From positions 6,946,001-7,010,000 of the forward strand of contig CM097885.1 of NCBI GenBank assembly GCA_044892525.1: a stretch of DNA of 64,000 nucleotides, in the 5' to 3' direction. Below are positions 3,481 through 50,598 of the stretch, piece after piece. The notes below the pieces were generated by a model that had not been told where the DNA came from, ran no database searches, and worked only from the letters and a program-made list of their open reading frames with translations. Made by a program: the position numbers and the translations under genes. Position 1 is the first letter of the stretch. Every line of letters begins with the position of its first letter. The stretch comes from Schmidtea polychroa. Its lineage: Eukaryota.

Positions 3481-6400
3481 TGTTCTCAATTTCGCTCATT
3501 TTTGTTCAAAACATTCAGGTGAGTTGTTATCTGGAAAGTTTCTTTGAGCTCAGTTTTGTTAAAACACTCACGGTATTTTTGAGGGACGTGACACTGGAAA
3601 TAAATTAACAATGGGTGGTCTTGCATACATGTTGTTGGTTTGAACTGTTGATTTATTTTAGAAATATGTATATTAAAAACATTTAAGGTATCATTCAGTA
3701 AAATAATATAGTATTTTTGAGTATTTTTAGTTGATTTATAAATAACAGTATTTTGATATATCAATAAAGACCATATACTCCTAGTTTATCCGACAAAATA
3801 TTCTGTCCCCCTATGGGTATTGCTAGCAAGGGTACTGGTCACACTCAACAAGTCGCAAGGGTATATTAATCATTTAGAAATTCTTAGGTAAGATAATCAG
3901 AAATTTGTGAATATTTTAAATGTAACTTTACACTTATGTCGAGCGACTAATTTATTGGTTAACCTTTTAGACATTTAAAGCAAAAGGTAATTTATTCATC
4001 TAATGTTCGTTACAATAGTTAATAATATGAGAAAAACATGGTCATTATTCATTGATAATTTTAAATTCTTTATCATTTAGAGTAAATTTGTTTGAGGCAA
4101 AAATAATTAAAGGAGTCATAATAGAAATATGGTTATCATTTATCCAATTAAGGGGCTAATTAGTTAGAAATATATATTATAAAGTAACAATTATTTTCTA
4201 ATTTAATTAGATGATCATTAGACGTAATATATCTTTGCGAGAAATTTAAGATGTTTGAGTAACCAAAACATGGATATTTTGTGCGATAAATTTATGAATA
4301 TTGGTTAATTTTGTTATTTTTAGTCATTTAAAATAATATTTAGCAAAGGTAATTTAGCAAAATATCATTGAAAGATTTATCCATCCGATAATAATATTCC
4401 TTCAATAGATTTTACCTTTAATATTCAACCGATTTAATTTCTAGAAATCTAATTAAAATCATAAAATTCCTTCAATAAAGTTAAATTTTCTTTAGCCGTT
4501 GTCGATTTCCAACTTTTAAGTCAATATTTCTCAAGTTTTGTCACTGATGTCCCCACAATGAATAAAATAACTTCTTAAGTAAATAATTTAAAGCAATAAC
4601 CTTTGATATCAATCCCAATTAATTCTAAAGATTTCAAATATTTCATTGTGAAAACCAAGTAAATTGATCATTAACCCTAAACGACTTAATAAAACAATGG
4701 ATAATTAATAAAAAACTGGTTCTAAAACATAAATCTAAATTACTGTGCAATAACATTCATCACAACCTAATAAACCTTTAAAACGATATAATTTCACAGG
4801 AACTATTATTAATTCATAGCTAAATACTGACTATTTCCCTTTAAAATTTTACCAATAAGAACATTGTCGATTTAAATAGAGATTTCAAACATTTCCACCT
4901 TAACCGATCCCTCACCAAATATTTCTATCATTTTAAACACCCCCTTAAAAATCATATATTACCATCTTAACCAACCGACTTTAATATATCAGACCTTTAA
5001 TATATCAATTCTCTTAAAATCCATAGAAAATTCTTCAAAATATGAATTTTATTTAATTGTTACAGACATCCGTCCATTGAAATAATTTAGTATCTAAATT
5101 CAAAGAGTCCACTAAAAGATCAAAATTCACTAAAATCAATATTTAACCACATGTATCATCAAATACCTAACTAGAGATGAAATATATTGATTGATCATAA
5201 TTCTTCATCGATCCAGCTAATTATATAGCAATTATAACGTGATATATCTTTCAAAATCACAAATTTCAGTATATTTTACAATAATTTTTACAAAAATTAA
5301 ATAATAATCACTTGATTATTGTAAAAACTCTAATTATTAACCTAACTGTCATTAAAAATAATTTTTATTTAAAAGTAAATTTAAAAACAAGTCAATAAAA
5401 TATAGCAAATTATCAAGAAATTAATTAAATTTGTCTTAGAATTAACACTAAAACGTTAAATTTCAAAATATTCTTTCAATTATTCACAAAAAGGTTAGTA
5501 ATAATGTTAGTAAAATCCCGCTAACTCTAAAAATTACCAATGAATTTAATGCTAAATAATAACCAAAAATTTGCCTAAATAAAATCATTAAAACACACCA
5601 GTACCCTTACGAGCAGTACCAATTGTGAGCAGTACCCATAGAGGGAGAAAATATCTTGTCGGATAAACTCAGAGTATATATAATAAAACGAATTAACAAT
5701 AACTCCATCAAATTGAATCAGTCAAATTAACACAAATTTTGATAAAAAATCTTATTCTAAAATGTTAAGAAGCGTAAAGTCGAAAGATAATTTTAATAAC
5801 ACCGAGATAAATTAACAATATTATTCTCAGGTGGTAAGAATCTTCATTAAAGTTAGGAAATTATTTATTAATCTGTCATAAAATTATAATAAACTTCAAA
5901 GGGGTTAAAATAAGTGTTAGAATAATTCATTATTGGATTATGGAAGGTCAATGAAAATATACTGAGAAGTGGCATGGATATATATTAATTTTATTTATTT
6001 AAAATTATTTCATAAAATTCATAAATTTCATAAAAATTCATAAAAACGTTCACTTTAATAAAAAAATATTTAATACAATTTTAAAAGAAATATTTGCCCG
6101 GAGAATATAAATGATAATAATTATTGGGAAATCGAGAATCGGCGGCTATAAGTGATGAGGATATATAAAATTATTTCTATTATATGAGCTACTAAAGAAT
6201 TAAAATATTTTAATAATGCGATAAACTTTTATTTAATAAAGTATTTAATCCCAAATGATTATTTTATTACATAAGAAACCGTGAAGGGTATTTGACAGAG
6301 TAATTATGATAAATTCATATTTTAAATTTTGATTAAGTCCTTTAATATTAGCAATTATTATTAAATTTACTATTTTACACTAAATATTTCATTTCACTTT

Positions 6401-8768
6401 AATGAAGATTCTTACCACCTGAGAATAATATTGTTAATTTATCTCGGTGTTATTAAAATTATCTTTCGACTTTACGCTTCTTAACATTTTAGAATAAGAT
6501 TTTTTATCAAAATTTGTGTTAATTTGACTGATTCAATTTGATGGAGTTATTGTTAATTCGTTTTATTATATATACTCTGAGTTTATCCGACAAGATATTT
6601 TCTCCCTCTATGGGTACTGCTCACAATTGGTACTGCTCGTAAGGGTACTGGTGTGTTTTAATGATTTTATTTAGGCAAATTTTTGGTTATTATTTAGCAT
6701 TAAATTCATTGGTAATTTTTAGAGTTAGCGGGATTTTACTAACATTATTACTAACCTTTTTGTGAATAATTGAAAGAATATTTTGAAATTTAACGTTTTA
6801 GTGTTAATTCTAAGACAAATTTAATTAATTTCTTGATAATTTGCTATATTTTATTGACTTGTTTTTAAATTTACTTTTAAATAAAAATTATTTTTAATGA
6901 CAGTTAGGTTAATAATTAGAGTTTTTACAATAATCAAGTGATTATTATTTAATTTTTGTAAAAATTATTGTAAAATATACTGAAATTTGTGATTTTGAAA
7001 GATATATCACGTTATAATTGCTATATAATTAGCTGGATCGATGAAGAATTATGATCAATCAATATATTTCATCTCTAGTTAGGTATTTGATGATACATGT
7101 GGTTAAATATTGATTTTAGTGAATTTTGATCTTTTAGTGGACTCTTTGAATTTAGATACTAAATTATTTCAATGGAAGGATGTCTGTAACAATTAAATAA
7201 AATTCATATTTTGAAGAATTTTCTATGGATTTTAAGAGAATTGATATATTAAAGGTCTGATATATTAAAGTCGGTTGGTTAAGATGGTAATATATGATTT
7301 TTAAGGGGGTGTTTAAAATGATAGAAATATTTGGTGAGGGATCGGTTAAGGTGGAAATGTTTGAAATCTCTATTTAAATCGACAATGTTCTTATTGGTAA
7401 AATTTTAAAGGGAAATAGTCAGTATTTAGCTATGAATTAATAATAGTTCCTGTGAAATTATATCGTTTTAAAGGTTTATTAGGTTGTGATGAATGTTATT
7501 GCACAGTAATTTAGATTTATGTTTTAGAACCAGTTTTTTATTAATTATCCATTGTTTTATTAAGTCGTTTAGGGTTAATGATCAATTTACTTGGTTTTCA
7601 CAATGAAATATTTGAAATCTTTAGAATTAATTGGGATTGATATCAAAGGTTATTGCTTTAAATTATTTACTTAAGAAGTTATTTTATTCATTGTGGGGAC
7701 ATCAGTGACAAAACTTGAGAAATATTGACTTAAAAGTTGGAAATCGACAACGGCTAAAGAAAATTTAACTTTATTGAAGGAATTTTATGATTTTAATTAG
7801 ATTTCTAGAAATTAAATCGGTTGAATATTAAAGGTAAAATCTATTGAAGGAATATTATTATCGGATGGATAAATCTTTCAATGATATTTTGCTAAATTAC
7901 CTTTGCTAAATATTATTTTAAATGACTAAAAATAACAAAATTAACCAATATTCATAAATTTATCGCACAAAATATCCATGTTTTGGTTACTCAAACATCT
8001 TAAATTTCTCGCAAAGATATATTACGTCTAATGATCATCTAATTAAATTAGAAAATAATTGTTACTTTATAATATATATTTCTAACTAATAAGCCCCTTA
8101 ATTGGATAAATGATAACCATATTTCTATTATGACTCCTTTAATTATTTTTGCCTCAAACAAATTTACTCTAAATGATAAAGAATTTAAAATTATCAATGA
8201 ATAATGACCATGTTTTTCTCATATTATTAACTATTGTAACGAACATTAGATGAATAAATTACCTTTTGCTTTAAATGTCTAAAAAGTTAACCAATAAATT
8301 AGTCGCTCGAAATAAGTGTAAAGTTACATTTAAAATATTCACAAATTTCTGATTATCTTACCTAAGAATTTCTAAATGATTAATATACCCTTGCGACTTG
8401 TTGAGTGTGACCAGTACCCTTGCTAGCAATACCCATAGGGGGACAGAATATTTTGTCGGATAAACTAGGAGTATATGGTCTTTATTGATATATCAAAATA
8501 CTGTTATTTATAAATCAACTAAAAATACTCAAAAATACTATATTATTTTACTGAATGATACCTTAAATGTTTTTAATATACATATTTCTAAAATAAATCA
8601 ACAGTTCAAACCAACAACATGTATGCAAGACCACCCATTGTTAATTTATTTCCAGTGTCACGTCCCTCAAAAATACCGTGAGTGTTTTAACAAAACTGAG
8701 CTCAAAGAAACTTTCCAGATAACAACTCACCTGAATGTTTTGAACAAAAATGAGCGAAATTGAGAACA
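3481..8768. repeat. Giant inverted repeat: arms 3481-5853 and 6396-8768 (2373 bp each) with a 542 bp spacer
   Basis: Arms are reverse complements. Outer and inner coordinate sums both equal 12249, so there is no net indel. About 4 substitutions spotted by eye. Confidence 0.97.
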
Positions 8769-9394
8769 GTAGTGAGGAATCTATGCACCCCAGCACCCCC
8801 ACCCTCAAAAAAGGTTTTGAAAGTTTTAAAAATAAAAAATTTTATGAAAATAGTAAAACTGCTCTGAGGGGACAGTGGTATTTTTTTTTTTTTTTTTTTT
8901 TTTTTTCACTGTCCCCTCAACAGTTTTTTTTGATCCGGATCATTTTTTTTTTATTTATCAACCTCTTTCGTTTATCAAATCTCTTCCAATATACAAGCTG
9001 GCCAGACTCATACATCAGAATCAATCCGATAATAGCAGCACGCCTTATTATTCGCTTCTCGCTCACGAAGTCGATTTCAACGGCGTTTTAAGCGTGCTGC
9101 TCGAAAGTACAAATGAATTCGAAAGCGAATCCGAAAGAGGTCCGAAAACAACCAAGAAATAAATGTGCACATTATAGAATCGATCCGGGGGTGTTCGAAA
9201 GACAGGTGGCGATAATTACCGGTTCGCCACCATCACCCGTTTCAATATTTTTTTTTTCATATTTATGTTTAAAAAATAATTAATTAATAAAAAAATAAAA
9301 TAAAATAAAATAAATAAAATAAAATATACAAGTACTTTATAAATATAAGATACCCACACTATTATTTTCAAATTTTTAATATTATTTTATGTTG

Positions 9395-9476
9395 AAAAAA
9401 AACTAACCACAGTTAGGATTTGAACCGCTATCTATTTGAACCACTGTGCCGGTCTAGCCCACTGCGCCATCAAGGT
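9395..9476 (-). ncRNA. tRNA-like Pol III unit 1
   Basis: Minus strand: A box TGGCGCAGTGG, B box GGTTCAAATCC, then T8. Confidence 0.6.
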
Positions 9477-9635
9477 TTGAATTTTTGTCATTTTTTAGAC
9501 TATAAATAATCGATTCAAGTTAAAACGTTTTTGATCTTAAATTTCCAAGAGTTGCCGTTGACCAATCACCTTTAAAATTTGTACAAGTACTAAATCGAGT
9601 ATGCTGATCAATATTTTGTTTAAAAAAAAAATTTG

Positions 9636-9716
9636 AAAAAAAATGACCGAAATGGGATTTGAACCCATTGGTATTGGCAATGCAGTCGAGTGCTATTACC
9701 ACTAAGCTATACTCAA
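9636..9716 (-). ncRNA. tRNA-like Pol III unit 2 (resembles tRNA-Cys 5' half)
   Basis: Minus strand GTATAGCTTAGTGGTAATAGCACTCGACTGCA...ATGGGTTCAAATCCCAT, then T8. T-arm is intact; acceptor and anticodon stems do not pair. Confidence 0.65.
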
Positions 9717-9869
9717 TATGAAATAAGTTGTTAATGTGTGACTATTTATTGATGAAATTAATAATTAATTATTCATTTTCTCGACAACTACCACTCAGAT
9801 CCATCTGAAAATTTAAATATATACTAAAATCAGTACGCTGAATCAGATTCCGTTGAAAAAAAAATATCG

Positions 9870-9951
9870 AAAAAAATTGACCAAAATCGAAAATTGAACC
9901 CGGTACTCCCGGTGATAAAATTGAAGCCTATTCCCACTCCGCTATAATGGC
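9870..9951 (-). ncRNA. tRNA-like Pol III unit 3 (degenerate B box)
   Basis: Minus strand: A box TAGCGGAGTGG, B-like GGTTCAATTTT, T7. A-B spacing matches units 1 and 2. Confidence 0.5.
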
Positions 9952-10007
9952 TTACATAATATATTTAATTAATCCTATTTTGTGTGTGTAAATTTTAATA
10001 TATAAAA

Positions 10008-11300
10008 ATGAATAATATAAATCTTAAAATTCAAGAAAAAAATAAATTAAATCTTGATTATAATAAAGAATTTACTCATGAAATCAAGAAAAATGATGTA
10101 CTTAAAATCTCCCCAACATCAGGATCTATTGCAAACTTAAATCGTAGGGGTGATATAGTTTTTCAATCTCTTCAAACATCAAACCCTATAGATATTTGTA
10201 ATGCCAAATTATATTATAAAATCGAATTAGAAATTGAAGCAAACAAAGATATAACCCTAGAAAATAATTTCTTTCCAAATTTATTCTCCAACATGAGATT
10301 AAAACTAGGATCATCAGAAATTGAAACTGTTTTGCATCCGGGAGTATATTCTACAATGTTAAATTTTATTTTGACTGGTTGTGATTATAAAAACGAATAT
10401 GGTGAATTAACAGGTTGGATTCCTGATGTTAATAAAGGGGATTTAGATAAAGATGGTTTAGATGTAAACCATGGTTACCATAAAAGAGCTGAACTTTATA
10501 AATCTAAAAAATTTGAAGGTTATTTTGAATTAAAACACTTGTTTGGATTCCTTCAAAACTATAATCGTATACTTCATAATGTTTTTATAGAATTCATCTG
10601 TAATAGAGTAGAAGGTGATAAAAGATTGTTCTATGGAGCTGTAGATACAAAAGCTAAATTAAAATTATCAACACTTGAATTACATATACCTGAATGGACA
10701 TTAAACCCACATTCTGAGATTAAACTCCTTGAAAGATTAAATTCCAACAAGTCTATAAATGTAAATTATTTAAATAGAATCTGTAGTGAATTTAGTATGA
10801 CAGAGGGTTCAACATATTCTATAAAGGTAGCAAATTTAGCATACCGACCAAGATATATCTTGATTGGATTCAAAGAAGTAGATTCATCTTTCCAAAAAAA
10901 TAACAACTTGTTTATTCAAAAGATTGGAGTTGATAATTTAAAAACAATCCAAATTCAATTAAATAGTTCTTATTATCCAATAAATAGAATGGAATTTAAT
11001 ATTGAAAATAATGAAAACATATTCCCATATCTAAATTATATTGAAACATGTTATGATTTCAAAGTTGAACCGCAATTAAGTTTAGAAGATTTCAAAAATT
11101 TATATTCTATATTTTGTATAAATGTTTCAGACCAAGATGATCGCCTAGCCATAAATAATGTTGATGTTACACTTCATGTAACAAAGGATTCTAATTTTAA
11201 AGCTAAAGTATATACATTAATATTAGAAGAAAAGAAAATAGAAATGAAATTATATGGTGGAAAGATTTCAATAATCGAAAATGTTAGGGGAGATTCTTGA
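10008..11300 (+). CDS. Major capsid protein (double jelly-roll, Polinton type)
   Basis: 430 aa. Motifs NNFFPNLFS..RLKLG..IE, RPRYILIGF, IQLNSSYYP and YSIFCINVS fit Polinton MCP; gene context agrees. Confidence 0.8.
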   Translation: MNNINLKIQEKNKLNLDYNKEFTHEIKKNDVLKISPTSGSIANLNRRGDIVFQSLQTSNPIDICNAKLYYKIELEIEANKDITLENNFFPNLFSNMRLKLGSSEIETVLHPGVYSTMLNFILTGCDYKNEYGELTGWIPDVNKGDLDKDGLDVNHGYHKRAELYKSKKFEGYFELKHLFGFLQNYNRILHNVFIEFICNRVEGDKRLFYGAVDTKAKLKLSTLELHIPEWTLNPHSEIKLLERLNSNKSINVNYLNRICSEFSMTEGSTYSIKVANLAYRPRYILIGFKEVDSSFQKNNNLFIQKIGVDNLKTIQIQLNSSYYPINRMEFNIENNENIFPYLNYIETCYDFKVEPQLSLEDFKNLYSIFCINVSDQDDRLAINNVDVTLHVTKDSNFKAKVYTLILEEKKIEMKLYGGKISIIENVRGDS

Positions 11301-11329: not shown

Positions 11330-12715
11330 ATGTCTTTAAATAAATATTGGAGATGTGAAACTTGTAATTGTCAAGTTACAAGACATCATAAAGCAAGCCA
11401 TCTTAAAACTAAAAAACATACAGGAGGCGATTTGCAATCTTCAAAAACAACATCTTCAATATTAAAACCTTTTACTACAGAAAAATATCCAGGTGAAAGA
11501 CATTTATTTAAACACAACTATACTGGACCAGGAACAAGATTAGATATTAGATTAGATGAAAATAATAATCCCAAACAAGGAGAAGAACCAATAAATAGAA
11601 TTGATCAAGCAGCTTTAAAACATGACATTGCATACAATTCAACAAATCTTAGAGATAGACATGTTGCAGATGTGAATTTAATACATGATTTAAATAGTAT
11701 CCAAAATCCATCAACCCAAGAAAAGATTCAAAGAGCTCTAGTTAAATTAGCAATGAAAGGTAAGATTTTCATAGGCTTAGGACACAGTCCGATCACCATG
11801 GGTGCAAGACTTCCTAGGAAAGCAAAAGATGTTGCTTATAAAAAGATTATCGAACAAGCAGACATTGAAAGATCCCTCGAGAGTACAGCCAAGACTAGTT
11901 TACAAACCCCAACAGAATCAGAAATAAAATATGCAAAGGAATTACACCATGAATTTAGAAAAAATAAAAAATATTTAAAAGTTCAAGTACATGAAAAAGA
12001 TCAAACATGGTCTGCAGATTTAGTCTTTATGCCCAAATCATCAGACCCTGAAAAATATAAAATAATTTTAACTGTAATAGATTTATATACAAGATTTGCT
12101 TTTGCAAGATGTTTAGAAAATAAAACAGGATATTCTATTACAGAAGCATTTGAAAATATATTTGAAGAAAATCAAAGAATCCCAAAATATTTATGGTGTG
12201 ATAAAGGAACAGAATTTTATAACAAAGTTTTTACAAAGTTTTTAAATGAAAATGATATTAAATTATATTCAACAGAAAACGAAGGAAAAGCAGTCGTAGT
12301 TGAAAGATTAAATAGAACATTAAAAAATAAAATGTGGAAATATTTTACTGCTATTGGAAAACAAAAATGGAACAATGAATTGTTACAAAAGATTGTAAAT
12401 GAATATAATAATGATGTACATAGTTCTATAAAATTAACACCTTTAAATGCTTCCACGAAGCCTGAAACCATTAAAGTGGTAAATATTGAAAATGATGTTA
12501 TTGAAAAACCAAAGTTTAAAATTGGTGACCGAGTAAGAATATTTAAATATAAAAATAAATTTGAAAAAGGATTCACAGCAAAATGGACAAATGAAATTTT
12601 TATTATAAATAAAATACATTATACAACTCCAATAACATATACCATCTTTGATTTAAATAATGAAAAAATATTAGGTAGATTTTATAATAATGAGTTACAG
12701 AAAACAGATTTTTAA
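11330..12715 (+). CDS. Fusion protein: C2H2-like Zn finger + parvovirus VP1u-type phospholipase A2 + rve (DDE) integrase
   Basis: CETC..H..H; NYTGPGT..PINRIDQAALKHDIAY..ADVNL; WSADL, IDLYTRFAF, CDKGTEF, VERLNRTLK, KFKIGDRVRI. Confidence 0.9.
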   Translation: MSLNKYWRCETCNCQVTRHHKASHLKTKKHTGGDLQSSKTTSSILKPFTTEKYPGERHLFKHNYTGPGTRLDIRLDENNNPKQGEEPINRIDQAALKHDIAYNSTNLRDRHVADVNLIHDLNSIQNPSTQEKIQRALVKLAMKGKIFIGLGHSPITMGARLPRKAKDVAYKKIIEQADIERSLESTAKTSLQTPTESEIKYAKELHHEFRKNKKYLKVQVHEKDQTWSADLVFMPKSSDPEKYKIILTVIDLYTRFAFARCLENKTGYSITEAFENIFEENQRIPKYLWCDKGTEFYNKVFTKFLNENDIKLYSTENEGKAVVVERLNRTLKNKMWKYFTAIGKQKWNNELLQKIVNEYNNDVHSSIKLTPLNASTKPETIKVVNIENDVIEKPKFKIGDRVRIFKYKNKFEKGFTAKWTNEIFIINKIHYTTPITYTIFDLNNEKILGRFYNNELQKTDF

Positions 12716-18622: not shown

Positions 18623-20742
18623 TTAGACCAGTCGTAATTGATTTATAATTATTTCTGCAGTAATGCTTTTTAACATTAATTTATGTGATTTAAAGTCTTC
18701 TGGTGTTAGTCCTTGGATATATTCAGGATCAGTATTAAAATATTTAAGTTCTATAGGTTTTATATTTTGAACTTGATTATATAAAGGTTTAGGAATTAAT
18801 ATTTCAGGATATTGGATTTCTACTTTAGCAAGTTGAAGGTCTGTAATCTCTAGGTTATAAATTTCATTTATTTTATCAAGATTTTTTATTATAGGGATTA
18901 AATCATTTCCAATAGGTAATGTTGTCTTCAAGTCAGAAAGTATAAATCTTTTATCATCATAATTTGTTATAGCAATCTTGTTACACTCTTCAAGATATAT
19001 ATTATGTTTCTCTGATTTAAGATGATGGGTTTTAGCAATTTTATTTTTATAATTTATATTTAATGAATCTTTATACTCTTGATGTGTGAAGGTTTTTGAC
19101 ACTGATTTTTGAATTCCTTTACTTTTATTTTCTTTATAGCTTTTCGGGTTTTCAGGGAATGAAGGATATTCAAATGTGTGATCTATTTCAACAGATCCTT
19201 CTCCCTCCCCTATTATAAATTTTATTGTATGCTCTTTCATAATTGGTTTGTCTTTCATTTCAAGAGAATATTGTTTAGGTCTAATAAACACTCCTCCACT
19301 TATTGGAGTATTTGGTTTTTCATCTTTAAAAGTAAATAATTCTCCAGAGTTGTTTATTAATTTATTTAAGGTTTCGTTTTCACTTATTTCCTTTTTTAAA
19401 TCTTTACTATGACCTTTTAAAAACATACTATCAGTGTCCATAGCATGCATGGATATTCGATCTCCAAAATGTGGTACTAGAACATCATAGTAGGCTTCAT
19501 ACATTTGAAGCTTTGAAAGTTCTAAAATTGAAAACCCTATAAAGATTGGTTTATTATAAGTTTTTACAGAGTTTTTAATCTCTATGGCTATAAGGTTACT
19601 AGAGAATATCTCGGCATTTTTAAATGTGGGCTTTCCAATTATCCGGTTGTACCTATTAAGGTCTTTTGATGTATTGGTCAAAAGCTCTACACGTGTGTAC
19701 TTGTCTATATTCTCCATGGTCTTTCCAAAGACCGCATTGTTCAGGAGTTTGTAAATCATATCAAGAAATGCATTTCCAGCTCTCTTTGCTGCATTTCTTT
19801 TCAAAATATTTCCCTCTATGAATTTTTTCATAAAAGGGGCTTGTCGAAATTTAATAATGGAATGTACTTTTTTTAAAACCATTCCATGGGAGAGATAAAA
19901 CTGAAGGAGTCTATAATGACAAAGGTAATCAGTTTTATCGGTCTGATCGCATAAAAGTTTTATACAGGGCGATCTATCCTGAGCCATCTGCCAGTCTGAA
20001 AGTTCTTCAGTCGAGATCTTTCTTCTTACTGGAGCAAATGGAAAGAATCTTGTCCTGGATTTTATTTCATTGGGATATTCAAGATCGCATTCTATGACAT
20101 ATCCAAATTGAGAATCTTTTGGTGTTTTTAGAATTTCTTGTATTAATTCCTCAGTGGGCTCTTCCCAGGTGAACTTGCCAATTGGAAGGTATTGAGTCAT
20201 TACTCCCGCATATAAAGCTGTTGCATCTATATACATTATTTCAGAAGGATTAGAAAGACCTTCCATTATTTCCTTACGATCTTCTGGGTTTGTTATTTCT
20301 ACATATAGAGCATCAGGATCTTTGAAAAATTTAGGATAAAGAGTTGTAAAATTATTAGCATTTATTTCTCTATTCCCTTGTACTGAAGAAATACCTCCTC
20401 TAATATTATGTTTATATACATTAAACATATCAAGCTCAACTAATAATTCAATAGTTTTATTTCTTACTGCTACATCTTCATCAGTCCATATGGTATATAA
20501 TAATATATCCCAAGCTAGAGAGGGAGCGGTTATATAATTATAAGGTTTTAATTCAAAAGCTTTTGAAAATGTCTCGAAGCAATCAGCTAAGATATAAACA
20601 TCCAAGGAAAGATACATGTCAGTATATTCTCCAAGGTTTCTACAGTTGAATAGATTCCACATTTTAACTGCACGGGAATATTCCTGATCAGAAATCCCTG
20701 ATTGTGTTAAAACAGAAAAGAAATCTTCTTGGGGTGGGAGTA
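18623..20742 (-). CDS. Protein-primed family B DNA polymerase, 5' part in gap
   Basis: YLSLDVYILAD, YIDATALYA, KLLNNAVFGK, MDTDS, RPKQY, KGI. Confidence 0.95.
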
Positions 20743-24769: not shown

Positions 24770-25892
24770 TTATTTAATCAATTGGTTTTCAGATATCCAG
24801 CTAGGATGTTTATAACCATGCCATTTCACATAGTATTGTTTATATTTCCCGTCTGATTTAGATTTTAAAATCTCTTGAATTCTGAAGATTGTGGGTGATG
24901 GAATGACTTGCAGTTCTGGTTCGTAGAATATGCCACTGACTTGATCGTTTTCATTATCTGTAATAAAGTACATGACCGGATTTTGATTAGTATCTATTTT
25001 CGATATTTTAAAAACTTCATCACTCCAATTGTTATCAAAATTCTTGATGAATAGAGAAGCACTGATTTTACTTATTCTAACATGGTCTCCTACTTTATAT
25101 TTCGGCTTTTTTGTTTTTGATTTATCTTGTTGTGATATCCAAGTATCAATATTATTTGTTGAATAAATATCAATTGGTCTCATTCCATTTATTCCTCTAT
25201 GAGGTGAAAAATTGTAATTGTAAATTATTTTCGACAATACATTTATCCACGTTTTATTGCCTTGATATACAAAATATTTTTTCAAACGATCTGTTAAAGT
25301 ACGATTGAATCTTTCCACGTGTGCTGCTTTATATTGTGAAAATACTGAGTAATGATTTATTCCTTTGATAATTTCTTTAACTTTGCTATTATAAAATTCT
25401 TTACCTAAATTTAAAATTAATTGAAATTATTTAATTTATAATTTTACCCAAATCTGTTTGTAAATTACGAGGCTGTCCGTCAGCAAATAATGTTTTTAAT
25501 GCATCAGCTATTTCATTAGCTGATTTAGATTTTGTTGGGATAGCACGAGTGTATCTACTAAATACATCAATACATGTCAAAATATATTTGTATCCTTTAT
25601 TAATTTTTGAAAATGGAATCATTTCCATTAAATCCATTTGCCATAAATCATTAACACCAAATGTTTTATAAGATCTCGTGGGGAATCTTTTTAACATTGG
25701 TTTATTTAGACTGTACGCTAATTGATTAGATAACCATTTTTGAGTTTCTTTCTTTGATTTATTTACTCTTTTTGCAAGTTTTTCTACACCACCAAAACCA
25801 TCTGGATCTTTAGGGTTTGTCCAAATGGTTTTGAGTTTTTTCTCTAATATTTTTTTCTTTGATTTGACCTTTTTGGAAAATGTTTCCTTCAT
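24770..25892 (-). CDS. rve integrase with C-terminal chromodomain, spliced (intron 25405-25447)
   Basis: WQMDL, IDVFSR, QTDLG|KEFYN, VERFNRTL, YYVKWHGY..SWI. Confidence 0.88.
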
Positions 25893-30199: not shown

Positions 30200-30942
30200 C
30201 CATTTCCTCATTCAATTCTTCTATTTCTGCTCTGTTCTCCGCCTCTTTCCTTTCAATATTGCACAATTTCACCTACAATCATAAATATCAATTAAATTAA
30301 TTACAAATAAAATTTACATTGATATTATCAACTTGTTGTTTGAATTGCGTCATTTCTCCTTTCAATTCGATAATTTCGTTACGCAATTTCATATTCTCAT
30401 CTCATTGCTTGCATCTCATTGCATAAATTACTGATCTGATCAATCAATAATTTGCTGTGGCCTTCATTGTTCTCATTGAGATGGGCTTTCATTTCGTCTT
30501 TTACCACCTCATTCATTTCACATCCAATTCTATTGAATGGGCATCTGATTGGCTACTTGTTGCATGTTCTTATATGGCTCTCCATCATGCACAACTCGGT
30601 TTTGAATTCACAATTTTGCATTGGACATTTTACAATGACTTCAGATATTTTTAAATTCACTGAATGATCCACAGAAAATTCTTTAGTGAAAAGAATCGTT
30701 AGAACTTCACAATATTTTGCTGCTCCTGGACAGAATTTATCTTTTCCTTCCAAATAATGCTCAATGCAATCAGAACAAAAGTGACACCCGCAAGGAGCTT
30801 GGCAAGCTTTTATCATTAAACATTTGCAAATTCTGCACATCAATTCATTGCTGATTTCATTATCAAATTCAAATTTATTTCTCTTCATCATTTCCCATAT
30901 GCTTGAAAACATTTTATCTAAAATTAACAAAATTTTCAACAT
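30200..30942 (-). pseudogene. TRAF-like RING/zinc-finger host pseudogene
   Basis: CRICKCL..PCGCHFCSDC..FCPG RING; VKCP..C..H..C; after an in-frame TAG, PIRCPFNRIGC. Confidence 0.75.
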
Positions 30943-36148: not shown

Positions 36149-36684
36149 AGTAGAGGGATAGCGGCCCACTAAACCAGCGGCCCTCTAGGACAAAGACATA
36201 CCCCCTCCCCTCCCCCGCCATTTTATTTTTTTTTCAAGGTCAAATTTTAAACAAAGACATATGACTCATCAAGGTCACTGAAACAAAGACCATGACTCAC
36301 CCGATGACTCATTCAAGGTCATATGACTCATCCGATGCCTCATTCAAGGTCATATGACTCACCCAATGACTCATTCAAGGTCATATGACTCATCCGACGA
36401 CTCATTCAAGGTCATATGACTCATCCGATGACTCATTCAAGGTCATATGACTCATCCGATGAGTCATGCTAAATTTTTTAAAATTTAAATTCTCAGAGTT
36501 CCCGCCAATGGTTTTTTATTATTTAATAGCTCATTCGAAAGATATTTGAATGGTGAGTATTTGAGACCATCGAAGGTCTATGGAGGTTCAATAACCTTCA
36601 AAGAGTTCAATGGTATTGGTTACACTCAACAGCTCACAAGGGTATTATTATTACTATTATTATAATTATTATTATAATTATTAA

Positions 36685-36778
<94 letters not shown>

Positions 36779-36818
36779 ATTATTAATATTATTTTTATTG
36801 TTATTATTATTATTATTA

Positions 36819-36909
<91 letters not shown>

Positions 36910-36917
36910 TTTATTAC

Positions 36918-36997
<80 letters not shown>

Positions 36998-38853
36998 TTT
37001 ATTTAAAAAATGTTTAAACTTGAAAACTATCACATGTTTTCAAAATAATAATAAAAATACAAATATTAAAATTATTATTACGATTATACTGCTGCCGTAA
37101 TTTTTTTGCTGCAACTTTTGATTACGCAATTTTTCAGACTATAGTGAAGGGGTCTCGATGGTCCTGGAATTTTCAATACAAAAAAATTTTTTCAATACAA
37201 AAACGATGGTCCTGGAATTTTCAATACAAAAAAATTTTTTCTATACAAAAACGATGGTCCTGGGATTTTCAATACAAAAAAATTTTTTCTATACAAAAAC
37301 GATGGTCCTGGGATTTTCAATACAAATAAAATTTTTTCAATACAAAAAGGTGGTCTCACTAAAAAAGCATGGATTTTTCAGACTATAGTGAGGTGAGTCT
37401 CTTGGTCCTGGGATTTTCAATACAAAAAAAAATTTTTCTATACAAAAACGATGGTCCTGGGATTTTCAATACAAAAAAAAATTTTTCTATACAAAAATCC
37501 GACTACCAATAAAAAAGCATGGATTATTCACGCTATAGTGAAGGGGTCTCGATGGTCCTGGGATTTTCAATACAAATAAATTTTTTTCAATAGAAAAAGG
37601 TGGTCTAATCTAAAAAAGCCAAGGATTTTTCAGACTATAGTGAGGCGGTCTCGATGGTCCTGAGATTTTCAATACAAATAAAATTTTTTCAATACAAAAA
37701 CGATGGTCCTGGGATTTTCAATACAAATAAAATTTTTTCAATAGAAAAAGGTGGTCTACACTAAAAAAGCCAAGGATTTTTCAGACTATAGTGAGGGGGT
37801 CTCGATGGTCCTGAGAAATAGGTGGTCTACACTAAAAAAGCCAAGGATTTTTCAGACTATAGTGAGGCGGTCTCGATGGTCCTGAGATTTTCAATACAAA
37901 TAAAATTTTTTCAATACAAAAACGATGGTCCTGGAATTTTCAATACAAATAAAATTTTTTCAATACAAAAACGATGGTCCTGGGATTTTCAATACAAATA
38001 AAATTTTTTCAATAGAAAAAGGTGGTCTACACTAAAAAGCCAAGGATTTTTCAGACTATAGTGAGGTGAGTCTCCTTGGTCCTGAGAAATAGGTGGTCTA
38101 CACTAAAAAACGTGTTAAATTTTTCAATTAAAGTAAATAATGGTTCTAAAAAATTAAATTAAAGTAAATAATGGTCCTAAAAAATTAAATTATAGTAAAT
38201 AATGGTCCAAATTTTAAAATTAAAGTAAATTATGGTCCTAAAAAATTAAATTAAATAATGGTCCTAAAAAATTAAATCAAAGTAAATTATGGTCCTAAAA
38301 ATTTAATTAAGGTCCTAAAAATTAAATTAAAGTAAATTAAGGTTCTAAAAATTAAATTAAAGTAAATAATGGTCCAAATTTTTCAATTAAAGTAAATAAT
38401 GGTCCTAAAAATTAAATTAAAGTAAATTAAGGTTCTAAATTTTAAATTAAAGTAAATTAAGGTTCTAAAAAATTAAATTAAAGTTAATTAAGGTCTAAAT
38501 TTTTAAATTAAGTAATCAATGGTAAAAAATTTTAAATAAGTAAATTAAAGTAATAATTTTTAAATTAAGTAATCAATGGTAAAAAAAAAAATTTAAATAA
38601 GTAAATTAAAGTAAGATTTTAAAATTTATTAACAAAAAATAGAAGGTGTTTGAGAATTGAAATTTTTTAATGAAAATTTTTATGGAATAATTTTTTTAAG
38701 TAATTTTTTAATGGAAATTTTTATGGAATAATTTTTTTTTAAGTAATTTTTAATGGAAATTTTTATGAAATATTTTTCAACGATAAATTTAGATGGAAAA
38801 ATTTAAGATAATTTCAATGAAATATTTTTCAAAGTCAAATGAAAATTTAAATG

Positions 38854-38894
<41 letters not shown>

Positions 38895-38968
38895 TATCAA
38901 CCAAATACATAAAAATGAACTAGACACATAAAAATCTACCAAATAACAAATGTAAAGATATAAAATTT
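36149..38968. repeat. Left TIR (~2.8 kb): 31-bp, (TTA)n, ~42-bp and ~27-bp arrays
   Basis: Reverse complement of 52331-55178 apart from repeat-number differences. Confidence 0.9.
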
Positions 38969-41900
38969 AGTCAATAAAATTAGTCCTCATCGGACAAAAT
39001 AACGTCATCGATATCGATGTCATCTTCTTCATTAAATTCTTCCTCATCTTCTCCATCATTTGTCCATCATTTTCTGAAACATCTTCTCCAACATTTTCTG
39101 AAACATTTTCTGCAACAATTTCTCCAACATTTTCTCCAATATTTAATTCACTTAATCTTACATGCCCATATGCAAGACTAGCATTTTTCCCCACCCAAAC
39201 CCTTTTGTCATCTTTGTTAGTTAGTGCTATTTTTGTGTTTTTAATTGTAAAAATTTGATGATTTTTGCTTGTTATTTTAGTCTGAGGAACCGAAAAAATC
39301 TGGTTAGTGTTATAACAATCCAGGTATGACTGATGTTTTATGTCACTACCTTTCAATGTTACACCTTTAGCCTTTTTTGTTTCCTCATCACCCAACAAGC
39401 TATAACATTTAGGTCTAAGAAAAACCCACTCCTTATATTTAAGACCTTTATTCTCGTCTTTGAACTTTCCAATGACAGAATCAAGGTTCTTACTATATAA
39501 GGAATGACAACTATTGTAATTGGAAGTATCCAATAAATTATCTCGAACCATTGCAGGTAAAAGAACCTCAAGTTTGCAGTTAATGACTTCGAGGAAAAAA
39601 GAATCTGTATCACCTGCAACGATATTAATTTTACAATTAAACTCATTGCGAAATGATTCCAGATCCTTATATTGCAATTCATACATTCTAAGTTTAGATA
39701 GATCAAGTACAGATTGACCAATGTAACTCGGTCTATCTAAACATATAGAATCTGAATTCAATAGTGCTGCAATTAAATTATCTGCTATTTTAATAGATTT
39801 TTTAAAAGTCGGTTTTGACGAATATTTAACTAATTTACCGGCAGTTGTACAAAGACGAAGATTCATTCTTCTCTTTAAATTTTCAACTGTTTTGCCGTAT
39901 AAACTATTATTTTGCAATTTATAATAATTTTTATCTAAGTTATTTACGCTTTTTGATCTTAATTCGGTATTTGTATCTATATATTTTTTAAAAATTGGTG
40001 ATTGCTTAAATCTTACACCCTATTTACACGTGTTACTTTAACACCAAGTTCTAAATATAATTTTAATAATCTCCAATGAATAACATAATTAGATTTTGGA
40101 AGATGAGTTAATAATAATTTTTCAACCTTAGACCCAGCAGGTTTCATTTTTTCAGCAGCTACAGGGAAATCATCCAACTTATCATGAAGCTCAGAAGGAA
40201 TTACAAGATCAACTTCAAGTGTGTATCCATAAGACAAAGATTCAAGATTTAAATTCCTACATTCATCCATTATTTTATCAAATCCATCAAGAACCCAACA
40301 AAATTCGCCACAAGGTAATGATTGACTTAAAGCCCACCCATAAAGATTATTAATATCTATATAAAGTAACTCGGTGTTCTCGTCGGTTTTTACGTAATGC
40401 TTATTCACAAAAGTAAGACCGCCTCTTATTCCACCCTCATAAAAGCTAAACATTTCGTTTTCAGTTATGAGTTCAATTGGTTCATTTAAAGACATTAATG
40501 CAGAAGACCAAGACATGCCTGGAATTCCGAAATAATTCAAAGGTTCTAATCTATTGTGAGCAATTGATTTCAACCTAAACTGATGAAAGAAATCAGCCAA
40601 AAGAAAACAATCAAGTTTTAGGTAGATCATCATATAATCTAATAAAGTTCTGCAATTAGATTCTACCCAAATCTCCTGAGCTTTTTCATACTCAAGCTCA
40701 GTGACACCCTCCCAGATTGGTGGTAATTCATACGTAGTTTGTAGAACATCTAAAGAAGTGGCGAAATTATAAGGGAAGATTCCTTTTTCACTTACTATGG
40801 TGCCAGAAAAAGCAGAATTAGTAAAAGGCAAAGAATTCAAAGTTTTGACTGCTTTAGCCAAAGAATCATTGACAAATTGATATGAATCAATGAATCTTAG
40901 GCTAATTTTGCCTATATGAGCAATCAAAGATATAAATTTTTCCGTAGTTATTGGGATGCACCCTAAATTCCAATTTTTAAATTTATTTAATCCATATTTA
41001 AGTATATGATGCATATCGTATCCCTTCAAGTTGTGAAATACGATAGGCAAAATTTTATTTATTTTTCTATTTACGTTACATGTGCTACAAGCTGCACCCA
41101 AGTATTTGCCCGTAAAATGATCGTGATCTCTAACAGGATCCACGATAGATTTCAAACAAAGATAACAAACCGTTGAATTAATGAATTGTTGTTGCTCATT
41201 TTTAGTTAATTTAATCATTGGTTTCCTACCCATTTTATAATAAAAAGGAAGAACCTTATTTAATGCTATATCCTCTATAGCACTTAAAAAACTCTCGACG
41301 CAATCTAAACCTATGAACTGCTGATAAGATTTAGATCCGTCAAAGTTATTTACTAGTAAAAGACCGGCAGATATTGGCATGTGTCGCTGAAAATGATCAT
41401 TATCACAAGGTAAAATAGCCTCAAAATCGGCATAAACTACGAAAGGAGGAGTTACTGTTTTCGACCAGTCAGTAAACTGTAAGAATTTATTTTGAGGGAA
41501 AGTATAAAGAGTAGTTCCTAATTGATTGCGTTTGCATAATATTTCATGTTTTTCTAGTGCGTTTCTATTTTTAAAACCATTTAAACATCGATGACACCAT
41601 ATTGATTGTATGCGTGTAGGACAACTAGTGTTTATGCGGCAATTCAGTAACCTATTTAAATTGCTTATAGCAATGTAATGGAAATTGTTCCCTTTATTTA
41701 ATAAAAGTAAATTAATTACTGTTCCATTTAAAACTTTGGAACGATGTATAATGTCTAAATGGGGGTGTTTTAAAACGTAATTATCTATTAATTGTTTGTT
41801 ATTGTCATAAGAAAAAACATTAATTATTAAACCAGGATTTTTGGCCTCGAATTTTCTAATATCTTTTAATTTCATTGGTAAGTCTAATGGATTATATATT

Positions 41901-43102
41901 AACTCAGATAAATTATAACTAGATGTCCTATTTCTAGCATAACTACTAACCTCATCATATTTTAAAATAGCTAAAATGCTATATAAAAAACATGAATCGT
42001 CGGTGTTTTTTACATTAATTAAGCAATTTTTATTTTTTAGACAAGTAGGTAGTTCAATGAAACTCTTACCACTTAATCTACTTAGCCTACTTATCTTTGT
42101 TATGGTGAAGTGAATTTCAGTTATTTTTTTTATGATCCAGCTACTTCCTAACTCTGTGATATTACTTATTTTCTCGTTTAGTTCCCTAATGCCTTCGTCA
42201 AAAAATGAGGCAGTTAAAGGTTTTGCGTAATTGGAAATATTATTAACCTTTATTTCCCCGTCTTTTTCAAATTCGATTGTTATTCCGAATTGAATTTTGA
42301 CGGAGCCTAATTCGTTAATAATATCTCGTAATTTTATAATTAATTGTTCTGGAAATATTATTTCCTTTATATTCAAGTTACTTGTATTTAGACTTAAAAT
42401 TTGATGTGTACCCCTTAAATCTTTTTGTACTATGGGTACATTACCTCCTATTTGTACATTAGTAGTCGAAGAGTCGAGTGAAAGATTATCAAATTCATTA
42501 TTGGGTTCACCTACATCCCAAGAGTCGAGTGAAAGATTATCAAATTCATTATTGGGTTCACCTACATCCCAAGAGTCGAGTGAAAGATTATCAAATTCAT
42601 TATTGGGTTCACCTACATCCCAAGAGTCGAGTGAAAGATTATCAAATTCATTATAGGATTCATCAACTAATCCGACCTGGGATTCAACAAAAGGCAATCC
42701 ATCATTGGATTCAGCAAAAGACAATCCATCATTGGATTCAACAAAAGACAATCCATCATTGGATTCAGCAAAAGACAATCCATCATTGGATTCATCAACT
42801 AATCCGACCTGGGATTCAACAAATGTATTTAATTTAATTTTTTTATTAGTAGTATTTATTTCAATAGTTGAAGGACGTTTAAAAATAACATCTTTTTTAG
42901 AATTGAACCTATCTAAATGTTGTTTATGCTTATTATAAAAGACGCTATATGTTAAGGGCTCGCTAATCTTACATATGGGGCATATAAAAAAAGTTTTATT
43001 ATAGTATTTTTTAGAATAATAATTCTCCATTATAGAATGGCAATTATTATGTTCTTTCGACGAACAATAATTTGGGTAAAGTATACCTAAAAATATATAC
43101 AT
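38967..43102 (-). CDS. Protein-primed PolB, two ORFs joined by a frameshift at ~40015-40020
   Basis: YADFEA, DHDH.TG, FHNLKGYD, FIDSYQF, KGIFPY, YIDINNLYG, NNSLYGK, GDTDS, RPKCY. True start uncertain; possible splice acceptor at 43087. Confidence 0.93.
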
Positions 43103-43233
43103 TTAAAAATTTGGCTAAAACATTTGATAAAAATAATACTATTAAAATTTTCTTATAATTTTGCATGTATGCATCCAATCAAAATTAATTATTTGCTATA
43201 AATGATAATTTAATGAAATAAATTTAACAAAAA

Positions 43234-43668
43234 ATGTCTACTATAAATAGTATCCTATTAGAAGAAAATAGTACATCAGTTATAGGTATGGTATGTAAAC
43301 CTCCTATTCAATTCCTTCAATATAATATGTACTATTTGAAATATCCTATTACTTATTCGTTCAAGGTAATTTTTTTTATTTAATTATTTAATATTAATTT
43401 GTTATAGGAACCAGTTAATTTAAAAACATGTCAATTCAATATTCAAATTGGAGATATTGGGGAAGAAGATAGAAAAAATCTTGGAGAAATTCTTAAATTA
43501 ATTAATAAAGAAATGATTTTTAATGAAAAATTTACATTTATCAATTGTGAAAAAGGGTGTAAATTAGACGAAGATAAAAAATCAAAAGTTCGAATACTTA
43601 TTCAAGGAGTCAAGATAAATGGAGTTATAATTAAACCAATTTGGAAAATTACAAATGTTTTTGAATAA
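43234..43668 (+). CDS. Spliced 130-aa hypothetical protein (intron 43366-43407)
   Basis: Exons of 132 and 261 nt give an open frame. Intron position is conserved in element B. Confidence 0.8.
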
Positions 43669-43744
43669 ATATTTAAGTGTTATTTTAAATGTTGTTGAAA
43701 AAATTTTAAAGTTAATAAGTATTTAATAAGGGTCAGATTATTAT

Positions 43745-44830
43745 TAAAGAGTACTGCATGCTCACTGCAGACTATTATGTAGCTACGTGCTCACTGTAGA
43801 CTACATTATTATATTAAAGACTACTGCATGCTCACTGCAGACTATTATGTAGCTACGTGCTCACTGTAGACTACATTATTATTATCATTATAAAAAAAAA
43901 TTTGCGAGGGATTTCCCCTTATTTCAAAATAAATATCATTAAAAAATATCATTAATAATAATTTCATTATAAAATATTATTTAAAAATGTTAATAATTTC
44001 ATCATTATATAAAAAATTTTACGAGGGATTTTCCCTTATTTCAAAATAAATATCATTAAAAAATATCATTAATAATAATTTCATTATAAAATATTATTTA
44101 AAAATGTTAATAATTTCATCATTATATAAAAAATTTTACGAGGGATTTCCCCTTATTTCAAAATAAATATCATTAAAAAAATATCATTAATAATAATTTC
44201 ATTATAAAATATTATTTAAAAATGTTAATAATTTCATCATTATATAAAAAAAATTTTTTACGAGGGATTTACCCTTATTTTTACTCTTAAGATAAAATTT
44301 TATTAAAAATATTAATAATCATTTTTAAAAATATTAATAATTTCATTATAAAATATTATTTAAAAATTGATAAAAATACTTACATTTGTCATTTTTCATT
44401 GTTTCATTATTAGCTTTTTTCATTGTTTCATTTTTATCATTTTTCATTGTTGCATTATTAGCTTTTTTCATTGTTGCATTTTTAACATTTTTCATTGTTT
44501 CATTTTTAACATTTTTCATTGTTGCATTTTTAACATTTTTCATTGTTGCATTATTATTCATTTTTGATTTTTATCTAAAAATAATTAAATTTTAATAATT
44601 AAAAAATAAAATTCTTACAATCCTTGGTACTAGCAAATTATGACCAAATTTTAAAAACAAATCATTTATATACTTCTTCTTCTACTTAATACATTACGTA
44701 ATAATTAAAGGATTAAATTGATACCATGCGTAATAATTAAAGGATTAAATAACTTACATAATAATTAAAGGATTAAATAACTTACATAATAATTAAAGGA
44801 TTTAATACCTTACATAATAATTAACTTAAT
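43745..44830. repeat. Internal non-coding tandem arrays (2x~68 bp, ~115 bp x3-4, 24 bp, ~28 bp)
   Basis: TACTGCATGCTCACTGCAGAC..; CGAGGGATTT.CCCTTATTT..; TTTTTCATTGTTGCA; ATAATTAAAGGATT. Confidence 0.9.
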
Positions 44831-44960
44831 TAAAGATTTAGTTTAATAATCAACTAAAATTTAAATTTTAATAATCAATTATATTGAATTAATAATCAAC
44901 TAAAAATTTATTGAAATAATCAGCTAAAATTTATTGAAAACAACTTTTTATTATAAAAAT

Positions 44961-45339
44961 TTATTTCATTGACTTTAACCAAGCCAAACAATGTTGTCCA
45001 CATGTTTTTGTTATAGGATTTTGGTAACGTATTCGATTGTATTCAATTGGCATTGACATTGATTGTAGTTTATTGATTAATATAGGTGGATAATAGAATC
45101 CCATTGGATCAAATGCATATATTTTGTCTGGTTTCACGTATACTGCAAGCCAATGTTCACCATTCAGATTAGCAGATTGAGTATTTACAATTATTGCTTT
45201 GTTGACATCTAAATAAGGTATTTTGTCTAATGGGAAAACACCTAGAAATTCTTTTCCTAGTAATTTTCTTCCGATAACATGTATCTGAATAGAACTAAAT
45301 TAATAATAATTAAATAATTTAAATTAATTCTTACTTCAT
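44961..45339 (-). CDS. Adenain-like protease, spliced (intron 45295-45334), 112 aa
   Basis: ATGAA + 334 nt exon gives MNSIQIH..GEHWLA..FDPMG..YQ..TCGQHC. Missed by the ORF track. Confidence 0.88.
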
Positions 45340-45373
45340 ATTTGATTAATTGATTTTCGATATTTGGTTTATA

Positions 45374-46597
45374 TTATACCAAAACAGTACGAGTAGATGT
45401 AATTTGAATTTCTTTTTCAAAAACTCCATATACGATTACAGAAACAGCTTCAGTAAGTGAAGATGCGAATTTAATATCTAATCGCAAATTTCCACTTTGT
45501 GGTAACTGACTTTGATGAAGATCAAAATCTGGTGCCAATACGAATGTAAAGAATGGATACTTGCTCTTAAAATCAGACATGGTGATACCACAATTCATAT
45601 TTTTATTTAGATAACCCATATTTCTAATAATCGATTGCATATAACTTGTACTATAATCATCTTTCTCAAAATCTTGACTATATTTTTCGCGATAATCACT
45701 TCCTTTACTTAAAGTTATGGACTTGACATTAAAGTGATCAAATAAAGAAAATGATTCTGAAAACGATCCACTAAATCTTTTACTAGATTGAAATGCAACA
45801 AGTATAAAATTAGGTAGTCGTCTATCTCCAAATATTTGTTCTTTATAAAAAGAGGAAGAACCAATAGGTAATGAGAAATCAACAACTTCTTTGCTTCTTA
45901 AAGGATAAATTGCATTTTTGGTAGACAGACCAATTTGATGTCCTGCCAAAACCGATGGTTCAACACGAACTCTTCTAACCATTAATTTTGCGTCTAATAA
46001 TAAAATTTTCGGTTCAATTTTCGCACAAGTTAAACTAAGTGTTGGATTTGATCTTGTTAATTTAATTTGAACACTAACACCTGGTAGTAAATATTTAGGT
46101 TGATCAAAGAAATCAAATTGAAGTGGGGAACATAAAGAAAAGGATTTTGATTTTTCAATCCATGTTTTTCTCGTAAGATCTTTGTTAGTATACCCCATTC
46201 CACCTAAAGATGTTCGTTTAGTATCTCCGTCATAATTTATAAGTGTTTCAATTAATGCTTTGTGGGCAAATCTATCATTTGATCCTTCAACTTTGATTGA
46301 ATTAAAAATTAATTCAACATCTTTAAAAAGAGTTTGGAAGAAGAAATTATTTGGAATTACTTCTGATTCGCCTAAATTCTCACCTAAATTATTAACAACT
46401 TTCAATTGAATATATAACAAAGTATCATTCAAATCTAAATATTCAGTCTGCGATCCATTTATGTAAAATTGAATCGAAGAAGAACCAGCATCTGTAATTG
46501 AATTTCTTGGGTATACATCTTCAAATGCTCCATGTTCAATCACTGCTTGGGGAGAAGGTCTATCAAAAAGACATAATTCTGATTTAGCACTAATCAT
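45374..46597 (-). CDS. Major capsid protein (Polinton PY type)
   Basis: KSELCLF..Q..IE, YLDLNDTLLY, QPKYLLPGV, AIYP, GNLRLDIKF. Confidence 0.92.
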   Translation of the reverse strand: MISAKSELCLFDRPSPQAVIEHGAFEDVYPRNSITDAGSSSIQFYINGSQTEYLDLNDTLLYIQLKVVNNLGENLGESEVIPNNFFFQTLFKDVELIFNSIKVEGSNDRFAHKALIETLINYDGDTKRTSLGGMGYTNKDLTRKTWIEKSKSFSLCSPLQFDFFDQPKYLLPGVSVQIKLTRSNPTLSLTCAKIEPKILLLDAKLMVRRVRVEPSVLAGHQIGLSTKNAIYPLRSKEVVDFSLPIGSSSFYKEQIFGDRRLPNFILVAFQSSKRFSGSFSESFSLFDHFNVKSITLSKGSDYREKYSQDFEKDDYSTSYMQSIIRNMGYLNKNMNCGITMSDFKSKYPFFTFVLAPDFDLHQSQLPQSGNLRLDIKFASSLTEAVSVIVYGVFEKEIQITSTRTVLV

Positions 46598-49019: not shown

Positions 49020-49024
49020 AATAT

Positions 49025-50569: not shown

Positions 50570-50598
50570 TATTATTATTAATTTACGCGACGGATTGT

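Follow-up and report, generated by a model that had tools for sequence, protein, structure and literature searches.

Mavericks (Polintons) are customarily described by their proteins, and they and the adenoviruses are related classes of linear dsDNA virus with a protein-primed polymerase. The closest working parallel for the tRNA-like array analysed here would be the TMERs of MHV68, with the adenovirus VA RNAs and the Pol III pre-miRNAs of BLV as looser parallels. The TMERs are eight RNA polymerase III (Pol III) products, tRNA-like and hairpin-bearing, that are clustered at the genome end and are not aminoacylated, some of them having alternative terminators (PMC4337559, PMC8223928). VA RNAI and RNAII combine an internal A/B-box promoter with a structured RNA and a T-run end, and the integrated BLV provirus has type-2 Pol III units arranged in tandem (PMC4378190). 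In yeast, barrier activity at the border of a domain has been described for tRNA genes and for ETC sites, and it depends on the B box (PMC3395662). The main text of the adintovirus paper makes no mention of Pol III, VA RNA or small RNA (PMC8502044). Searches of the open-access literature returned no report of a Maverick/Polinton Pol III RNA cluster and none of a tRNA-like array in an rDNA spacer. The candidate Maverick Pol III cluster described below, half of which is common to host rDNA, is apparently undescribed.

The cluster lies in a 64-kb window (the whole stretch of DNA analysed) from an AT-rich eukaryotic assembly of 781 Mb (probably of an animal, to judge by the type of element), inside an element, element A, that is a Maverick/Polinton. 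Pfam searches found the protein set expected of this class (pPolB, rve integrase, packaging ATPase and DJR capsid), with the A32-like ATPase fragment of the window copy scoring just under the Pfam cut-off, and the TIRs, AGT termini, 6-bp TSD and length (15-20 kb) expected of it are present as well; these features, together with an ORF that joins PLA2-like and integrase domains, are shared with alpha-adintovirus-like Mavericks. The left terminus (8768..8810, plus strand) is an AGTAGT end with its AGT terminus at 8768. The double-jelly-roll major capsid protein gene (10008..11300, plus strand; PF21738, E 6e-26) is divergent from the Pol III cluster, the ORF with PLA2-like and rve integrase domains occupies 11330..12715 (plus strand; PF08398, PF00665), and a partial gene for protein-primed DNA polymerase B, also of element A, lies at 18623..20662 (minus strand; PF03175). 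While the window copy is without ~290 bp of the 343-bp TIR present in intact copies, five natural copies elsewhere measure 14.9-15.0 kb, and four of the five have the 343-bp TIR and the 6-bp TSD. All 98 of the capsid matches scored (best candidates only) were ~100% identical, and the Maverick family of the window is both young and abundant.

Several other features of the window were recorded in passing. A near-perfect inverted repeat of 2,373 bp (99.8%, with a 542-bp spacer; 3481-8768) runs up to the left end of element A. Inverted repeats delimit a second Maverick-like element (about 36150-55180), in which one ORF matches the Pfam domain of TBP, the TATA-binding protein (51445-51921, plus strand; E 9e-15), and adjacent Maverick-like remnants gave weak RING-finger and chromodomain matches (30553-30942 and 24770-25183, both minus strand).

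Three minus-strand units, each with an A box, a B box and an oligo-T run, had been picked out by the sequence-only reading, and these are real. The strict A box TRGCNNAGTGG occurs three times in the 64-kb window, always on the minus strand (9944, 9709 and 9469), and its combination with a B box and a T-run is found at the same three sites only. We refer to these minus-strand units as U1 (9395..9480; A box 9459-9469, B box from 9426, T8), U2 (9636..9720; A box 9699-9709, B box from 9665, T8) and U3 (9870..9955; A box 9934-9944, degenerate B box 9890-9900, T7). Their A-to-B gaps are 32, 33 and 33 nt, respectively. The B box GGTTCAAATCC is found in two units, that of U3 has lost its final CC, and in U1 a B-like motif is duplicated at 9432-9442. 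The GGT(C/T)A tails, the T7-8 runs, the single degenerate B box and the orientation away from the capsid ORF at 10008 all agree with what had been described.

None of these units is a tRNA gene. ARAGORN called no tRNA gene among them, and U2, the tRNA-Cys(GCA)-derived unit, scores 26.7 bits against the Rfam tRNA model (cut-off 29). It shares 49 identities with host tRNA-Cys, retaining the D arm, the GCA anticodon loop and the T loop but having lost the acceptor stem, which bears out the earlier description of a tRNA-Cys-like unit that lacks a full cloverleaf. Against shuffled sequences, U1 and U3 fold no better than chance (z of +1.2 and +0.2), while U2 reaches -2.25. The host tRNA-Cys motif itself occurs 1,002 times, its genes standing in a 281-bp tandem array; long single-type tandem arrays are also seen for host tRNA-Lys (424 bp) and tRNA-Arg (278 bp) genes (L139-L172; C4, C140, C333, C1). 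The unit pitch of ~240 bp is near that of these arrays (278, 281 and 424 bp), and the footprint that a Pol III gene occupies may therefore account for it.

The claim of three units about 240 bp apart held for the spacing and fell short in the count, since a fourth A/B unit, U4, lies 240 bp past U1 on the minus strand (A box 9219-9229, B box 9176-9186, 32-nt gap). A relaxed A/B pattern, devised only after U4 had been seen, has four matches in the window, namely U1-U4, where 200 block shuffles average 0.03 and never exceed 1. All four units have the type-2 Pol III layout (A and B boxes 30-60 nt apart) with gaps of 32-33 nt, and all have an oligo-T terminator: T7-8 in U1-U3, and T4 followed by T4/T6 in U4. 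The U4 head (9145..9243, minus strand) ends in a T4 run at 9145-9148, beyond which lie a paired body of ~190 nt, A-tracts, a terminal hairpin and the T4/T6, for a total of ~390 nt. The structured body (8961..9141, minus strand) comprises a 9-bp closing stem, a further stem of 12 bp and, at 8972-9032, a hairpin of 61 nt rich in G-U pairs, and the terminal hairpin (8855..8924, minus strand) has an A-rich loop and is followed by a T4, with the T6 further on (8839), marking the predicted 3' end of a long U4 RNA.

The predicted fold is specific to the strand that the U4 promoter would transcribe. The region downstream of the promoter has a z of -5.06 on the promoter strand versus -1.19 on the opposite one, with corresponding values of -6.0 versus -2.05 for the body and -5.4 versus +1.1 for the 61-nt hairpin; the terminal hairpin stands at -8.45. 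Moreover, 18 of the 90 pairs in the U4 fold are G-U pairs, which form on the minus strand only, so the structure points to an RNA and not to a DNA cruciform. No Rfam family scored above its cut-off for any unit or for the U4 body, and the VA RNA family gave no match at E<=10.

Whether Pol III would read as far as this structure depends on the T4 run that lies between the U4 head and the 61-nt hairpin and is present in 82 of 83 copies. The first T-run after host tRNA genes is T4 for Cys, T7 for Lys and T5 for Arg; since T4 is the first run after host tRNA-Cys as well, U4 may stop at ~95 nt. The head has no cloverleaf fold, which makes cleavage by RNase Z doubtful. Contigs from four runs (three studies), which we only guess to be RNA, possibly being DNA, and from which strand, ends and level cannot be read, cover part of the U4 body in all four runs and U1 in three, while coverage is slight or absent over U2 in its core and over U3 for most of its length. 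In the summed contig depth of X1-X3, with the same limit that it may be DNA, 8922-9226 stands far above the capsid gene. We count these contigs neither for nor against transcription.

Variation among copies offers a second view of the U4 fold. In an alignment of 47 distinct copies (average column identity 95%; L015 and L010 omitted from alignment A2, four truncated U4 sites skipped), recurrent variants in pairs with a probability of at least 0.9 retain pairing nine times and break it once, where random transitions would retain it in 60% of cases. In the long hairpin, 10 of the 25 pairs vary on one side yet remain paired, the 12-bp stem has one compensated pair, and at one pair of the terminal hairpin 51 of 83 copies have G-C and 21 have A-T. 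Over all MFE pairs, on the other hand, variants retain pairing 11 times and break it seven times, and changes on both sides affect only 1 of 78 pairs. In a control with 500 shuffles, 11-14 score as high as the real alignment, a result within the range that relatedness alone gives, and the covariation is consequently weak and suggestive only. In the hairpin arms, homogenisation at the DNA level can be an alternative source of kept pairs.

A tRNA-like head, a body and A-tracts are also the anatomy of a SINE, and 3,093 matches to the U4 head are present in the genome, so a host tRNA-derived SINE with an A-rich tail that inserted in the element has to be weighed. Its insertions would be expected to be dispersed, the refuting observation that the sequence-only reading itself had named, yet 35 of 36 U4 sites examined adjoin Maverick sequence, the remaining one forms the other arm of a mini-element of 1.9 kb, and no solo SINE-like copy was seen among the 36. 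Outside Mavericks, U2 and U3 are likewise not dispersed, their copies occurring in a satellite or in tandemly repeated rDNA. We regard a SINE as highly improbable.

The distribution of the units follows Maverick subfamilies. In the subfamily of the window, the array is at one end only and outside the TIR in all five copies, so the cassette is not part of the TIR there. In a sister subfamily, U4 lies inside both TIRs (0.9-1.2 kb) in six of six elements, which had been chosen because they showed opposed U4 pairs, and U1 is found at both ends in five of them. The idea that the units also occur in the other TIR thus fails for the window's subfamily and holds for its sister, which has different TIRs and a polymerase arm only ~70% alike. 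Sister subfamilies carry one or two copies of U1 per end. At L111 (C1:~93,000-99,600), inverted repeats of 2.7 kb that belong to another family enclose the cassette and nothing else; L111 and L126 (C1:~9,866,000) are non-autonomous mini-Mavericks with little beyond terminal repeats and a Pol III cassette. U1 and U4 are Maverick-resident units. A coiled-coil-like minus-strand ORF remnant of ~230 bp was also noted between the capsid gene and U1 in L111, L118 and the sister elements, and is deleted from the window's subfamily.

Among divergent capsid loci, 20 sibling loci were sampled, of which L055 and L059 were dropped (<100 bp upstream). Eleven of the 18 with enough upstream DNA have U4 and zero to two copies of U1, while in seven the 2.5 kb next to the capsid gene are free of units, a count that concerns that end only. 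The units do therefore persist in sibling elements, as had been asked of them, but not at every capsid locus, and their number ranges from 0 to 4. In metagenome relatives (19-52% capsid identity), no A/B unit was found at 38 loci, of which 18 had at least 600 bp upstream and none an established terminus, a sample that says nothing on how general the units are; viral contigs yielded neither a capsid relative nor a U4-motif match.

Wherever a terminus motif was seen, the array lies 570-760 bp inside it and points outward. This placement is consistent with a reading in which the units work as DNA, their phased TFIIIC/TFIIIB sites keeping a zone free of nucleosomes, or holding back chromatin spread as a barrier, at the element ends and beside the capsid promoter, with any RNA a by-product; the same role may be played within the rDNA spacer, where, as described below, the same units are found in one rDNA type. 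The presence of the array in both TIRs of the sister subfamily fits such a barrier, as does the pattern of conservation in U1. In 53 distinct U1 sequences from 89 sites, recurrent variants affect none of the 10 B-box columns, versus 22 of 32 columns between the boxes and 7 of 8 after the B box, and they affect 1 of 11 A-box columns, a figure that is biased because the search was anchored on the A box. The B box is thus the best-kept part of a unit whose RNA has no stable fold. To our knowledge, A boxes are absent from the ETC sites of yeast. These sites also have no transcripts (PMC3395662), whereas all four units here have an A box, a B box and a terminator. A barrier, moreover, has no need of a 190-nt body that folds on one strand via G-U pairs, only one end carries the array in the window's subfamily, and U3 has a B box without the final CC. 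A barrier and an RNA cluster are not exclusive of each other; we consider the barrier reading rather unlikely.

U2 and U3 have a different history. They lie in a 480-bp block (9517..9996, minus strand), just upstream of the capsid gene, that is common to the element and the intergenic spacer of the host 45S rDNA at 92-94% identity. U2 has 3,018 matches, about half of which are a one-base variant (1,477 exact matches) that sits in a ~13-kb tandem repeat with 18S, 5.8S and 28S genes (Rfam). In the rDNA repeats examined, an antisense spacer array of four to five tRNA-like A/B-box units, in the order U0-U3-U2-U2(-U2), lies about 3-3.7 kb before the 18S gene with a pitch of 237-244 bp (e.g. L193-L194 on C202, L202-L203 on C218, and L107). 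By the count of U0, which is essentially confined to rDNA-type repeats (709 matches versus 878 for an 18S motif), about 700 rDNA repeats carry the array. Only 14 of the first 100 U0 matches listed are on chromosomes C1-C3, the rest being on unplaced contigs mostly at rDNA-like spacing, and a dispersed U0-U3-U2 carrier is accordingly disfavoured as donor. U0 aligns with U1 at 70 of 127 positions, for which homology is not claimed.

Sister Mavericks have an empty site at the position of the block, which argues for capture from rDNA. In L114, an intermediate form, the block lies between short AAAATT repeats and extends 10 bases further into the rDNA flank. Apart from the shared block, Maverick sequence is absent from the rDNA repeat, and an older satellite copy retains rDNA flank. 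This copy, at L113 (C1:145,800-162,200), is a 1,245-bp tandem satellite with a decayed U2 and an rDNA-type flank, about 81% identical. We infer that the block passed from the rDNA spacer to the Maverick, and that a deletion after capture moved U2 from ~490 to 240 bp from U1. The entry of U2 and U3 as one block also rules out triplication within the element as the origin of the three units. The observation that intervening sequence had diverged while boxes and spacing persisted was correct as a pattern, but the pattern did not arise within the element, two of the units having been imported together. U1 variants differ from U3 by at most two mismatches across the first 19 bases, and the rDNA array may thus itself descend from an older viral cassette.

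A second rDNA type (L200-L201, L209-L210, C3 end), whose 18S is 91.7% identical to that of the first, has no A/B unit in 36 kb, and derivation of U1 or U4 from it was rejected on that count. One of its repeats has a ~4-kb interruption in the 28S gene. The chromosomes also carry about 25 scattered 18S fragments (including L205-L208), which share 80-99% identity with the main rDNA.

Between element and rDNA, U3 is identical at 72 of 72 positions, U2 at 68 of 70 and the spacers at 101 of 103 and 120 of 126; the two genes are no better conserved than their spacers, and by this measure there is no sign of selection on them since acquisition. In the satellite, the U2 gene (54/70) has decayed beyond its flanks. 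These observations lend themselves to a reading in which the whole array is neutral cargo, decayed tRNA-derived pieces from rDNA and elsewhere that were spread by a young burst and shuffled by recombination. The unit number of 0 to 4 among siblings is as such cargo would have it, and with a mean column identity of 95% over 47 U4 rows the copies are so young that conservation says little. Neutral cargo leaves unexplained, however, the invariance of the U1 B box, the strand-specific fold and pair-keeping variants of U4, and the retention of U4 and U1 through swaps of TIR and polymerase arm. For the array as a whole we find it unlikely; for U2 and U3 alone it is the likelier account.

The account that we prefer, to which we would give about an even chance, is that of a Pol III RNA cluster in which U4 is the working gene through leaky read-through of its T4, its RNA being a decoy or small-RNA precursor directed against RNA silencing. 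The outward-pointing four-unit A/B array at ~240-bp pitch would recruit TFIIIC and TFIIIB at its A and B boxes, and host Pol III would likely transcribe it. Read-through at the T4 of U4 would give an RNA of ~390 nt composed of a tRNA-like head, double-stranded stems, a pre-miRNA-sized hairpin, A-tracts and the terminal hairpin, which could act against host RNA silencing in either of these two ways. U1-U3 would yield tRNA-like RNAs of ~85 nt that cannot be charged. Microhomology upstream of the capsid gene would have allowed the element to capture the block with U2 and U3 from the rDNA spacer; these units are probably recent add-ons, whose value, if any, would be extra TFIIIC binding beside the capsid promoter. 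More speculative is the extension that U4 makes an abundant ~390-nt RNA which blunts silencing and so enables thousands of copies, while the element trades Pol III units with the rDNA spacer; we hold this as a tentative possibility.

In favour of an RNA cluster we count the shared 32-nt gap and pitch, the strand-specific fold with its G-U pairs and the invariance of the U1 B box, as well as the keeping of U4 and U1 across subfamilies with different TIRs and ~70% polymerase arms and in L111. The 9:1 excess of pair-keeping variants, the 10 of 25 long-hairpin pairs and the compensated pairs in the 12-bp stem and terminal hairpin add to these. Counted against it are the T4 in 82 of 83 copies, the weak covariation with its 11 kept and 7 broken MFE pairs, U2 and U3 genes no better kept than spacers, and the absence of units from 7 of 18 sibling loci at the capsid end and from all 38 metagenome loci, none of which has an established terminus.

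This preferred account sets the array beside the viral systems in layout rather than in sequence. The TMERs are type-2 Pol III units near a genome end, with tRNA-like heads, hairpins downstream and weak internal terminators that give two lengths (PMC4337559, PMC8223928). U4 is laid out in a similar way, with its predicted T4 terminator between the head and the 61-nt hairpin. Here, however, three of the four units are without downstream hairpins, the single pre-miRNA-sized hairpin of U4 is inside a multiloop, its head has no cloverleaf, and a Maverick array partly shared with host rDNA takes the place of a mammalian herpesvirus system. The sequence-only reading had proposed a VA-RNA analogue; the type-2 anatomy agrees with this, but U1 and U3 are unfolded and U2 and U3 are recent and shared with rDNA, so that U4 would be the better candidate. 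The VA RNAs are ~160 nt long, whereas the RNAs predicted here are of ~85 nt (U1-U3) or ~390 nt (U4), and Rfam gave no family match apart from the weak one to tRNA. BLV units are themselves pre-miRNA hairpins (PMC4378190), unlike the unfolded U1 and U3.

If this account is true, Mavericks gain a counterpart of the VA RNAs and TMERs, with a bearing on how they escape silencing in animal genomes, and the predicted ~390-nt RNA, with about 3,000 genomic copies, provides a directly testable handle. The shared block would be a case of a virus-like element taking promoter units from the rDNA spacer of its host, and it exposes an antisense tRNA-like array that one rDNA type, of the two present, has in its spacer. 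Mavericks with the array are, on the model favoured here, likely to make regulatory RNAs of their own.
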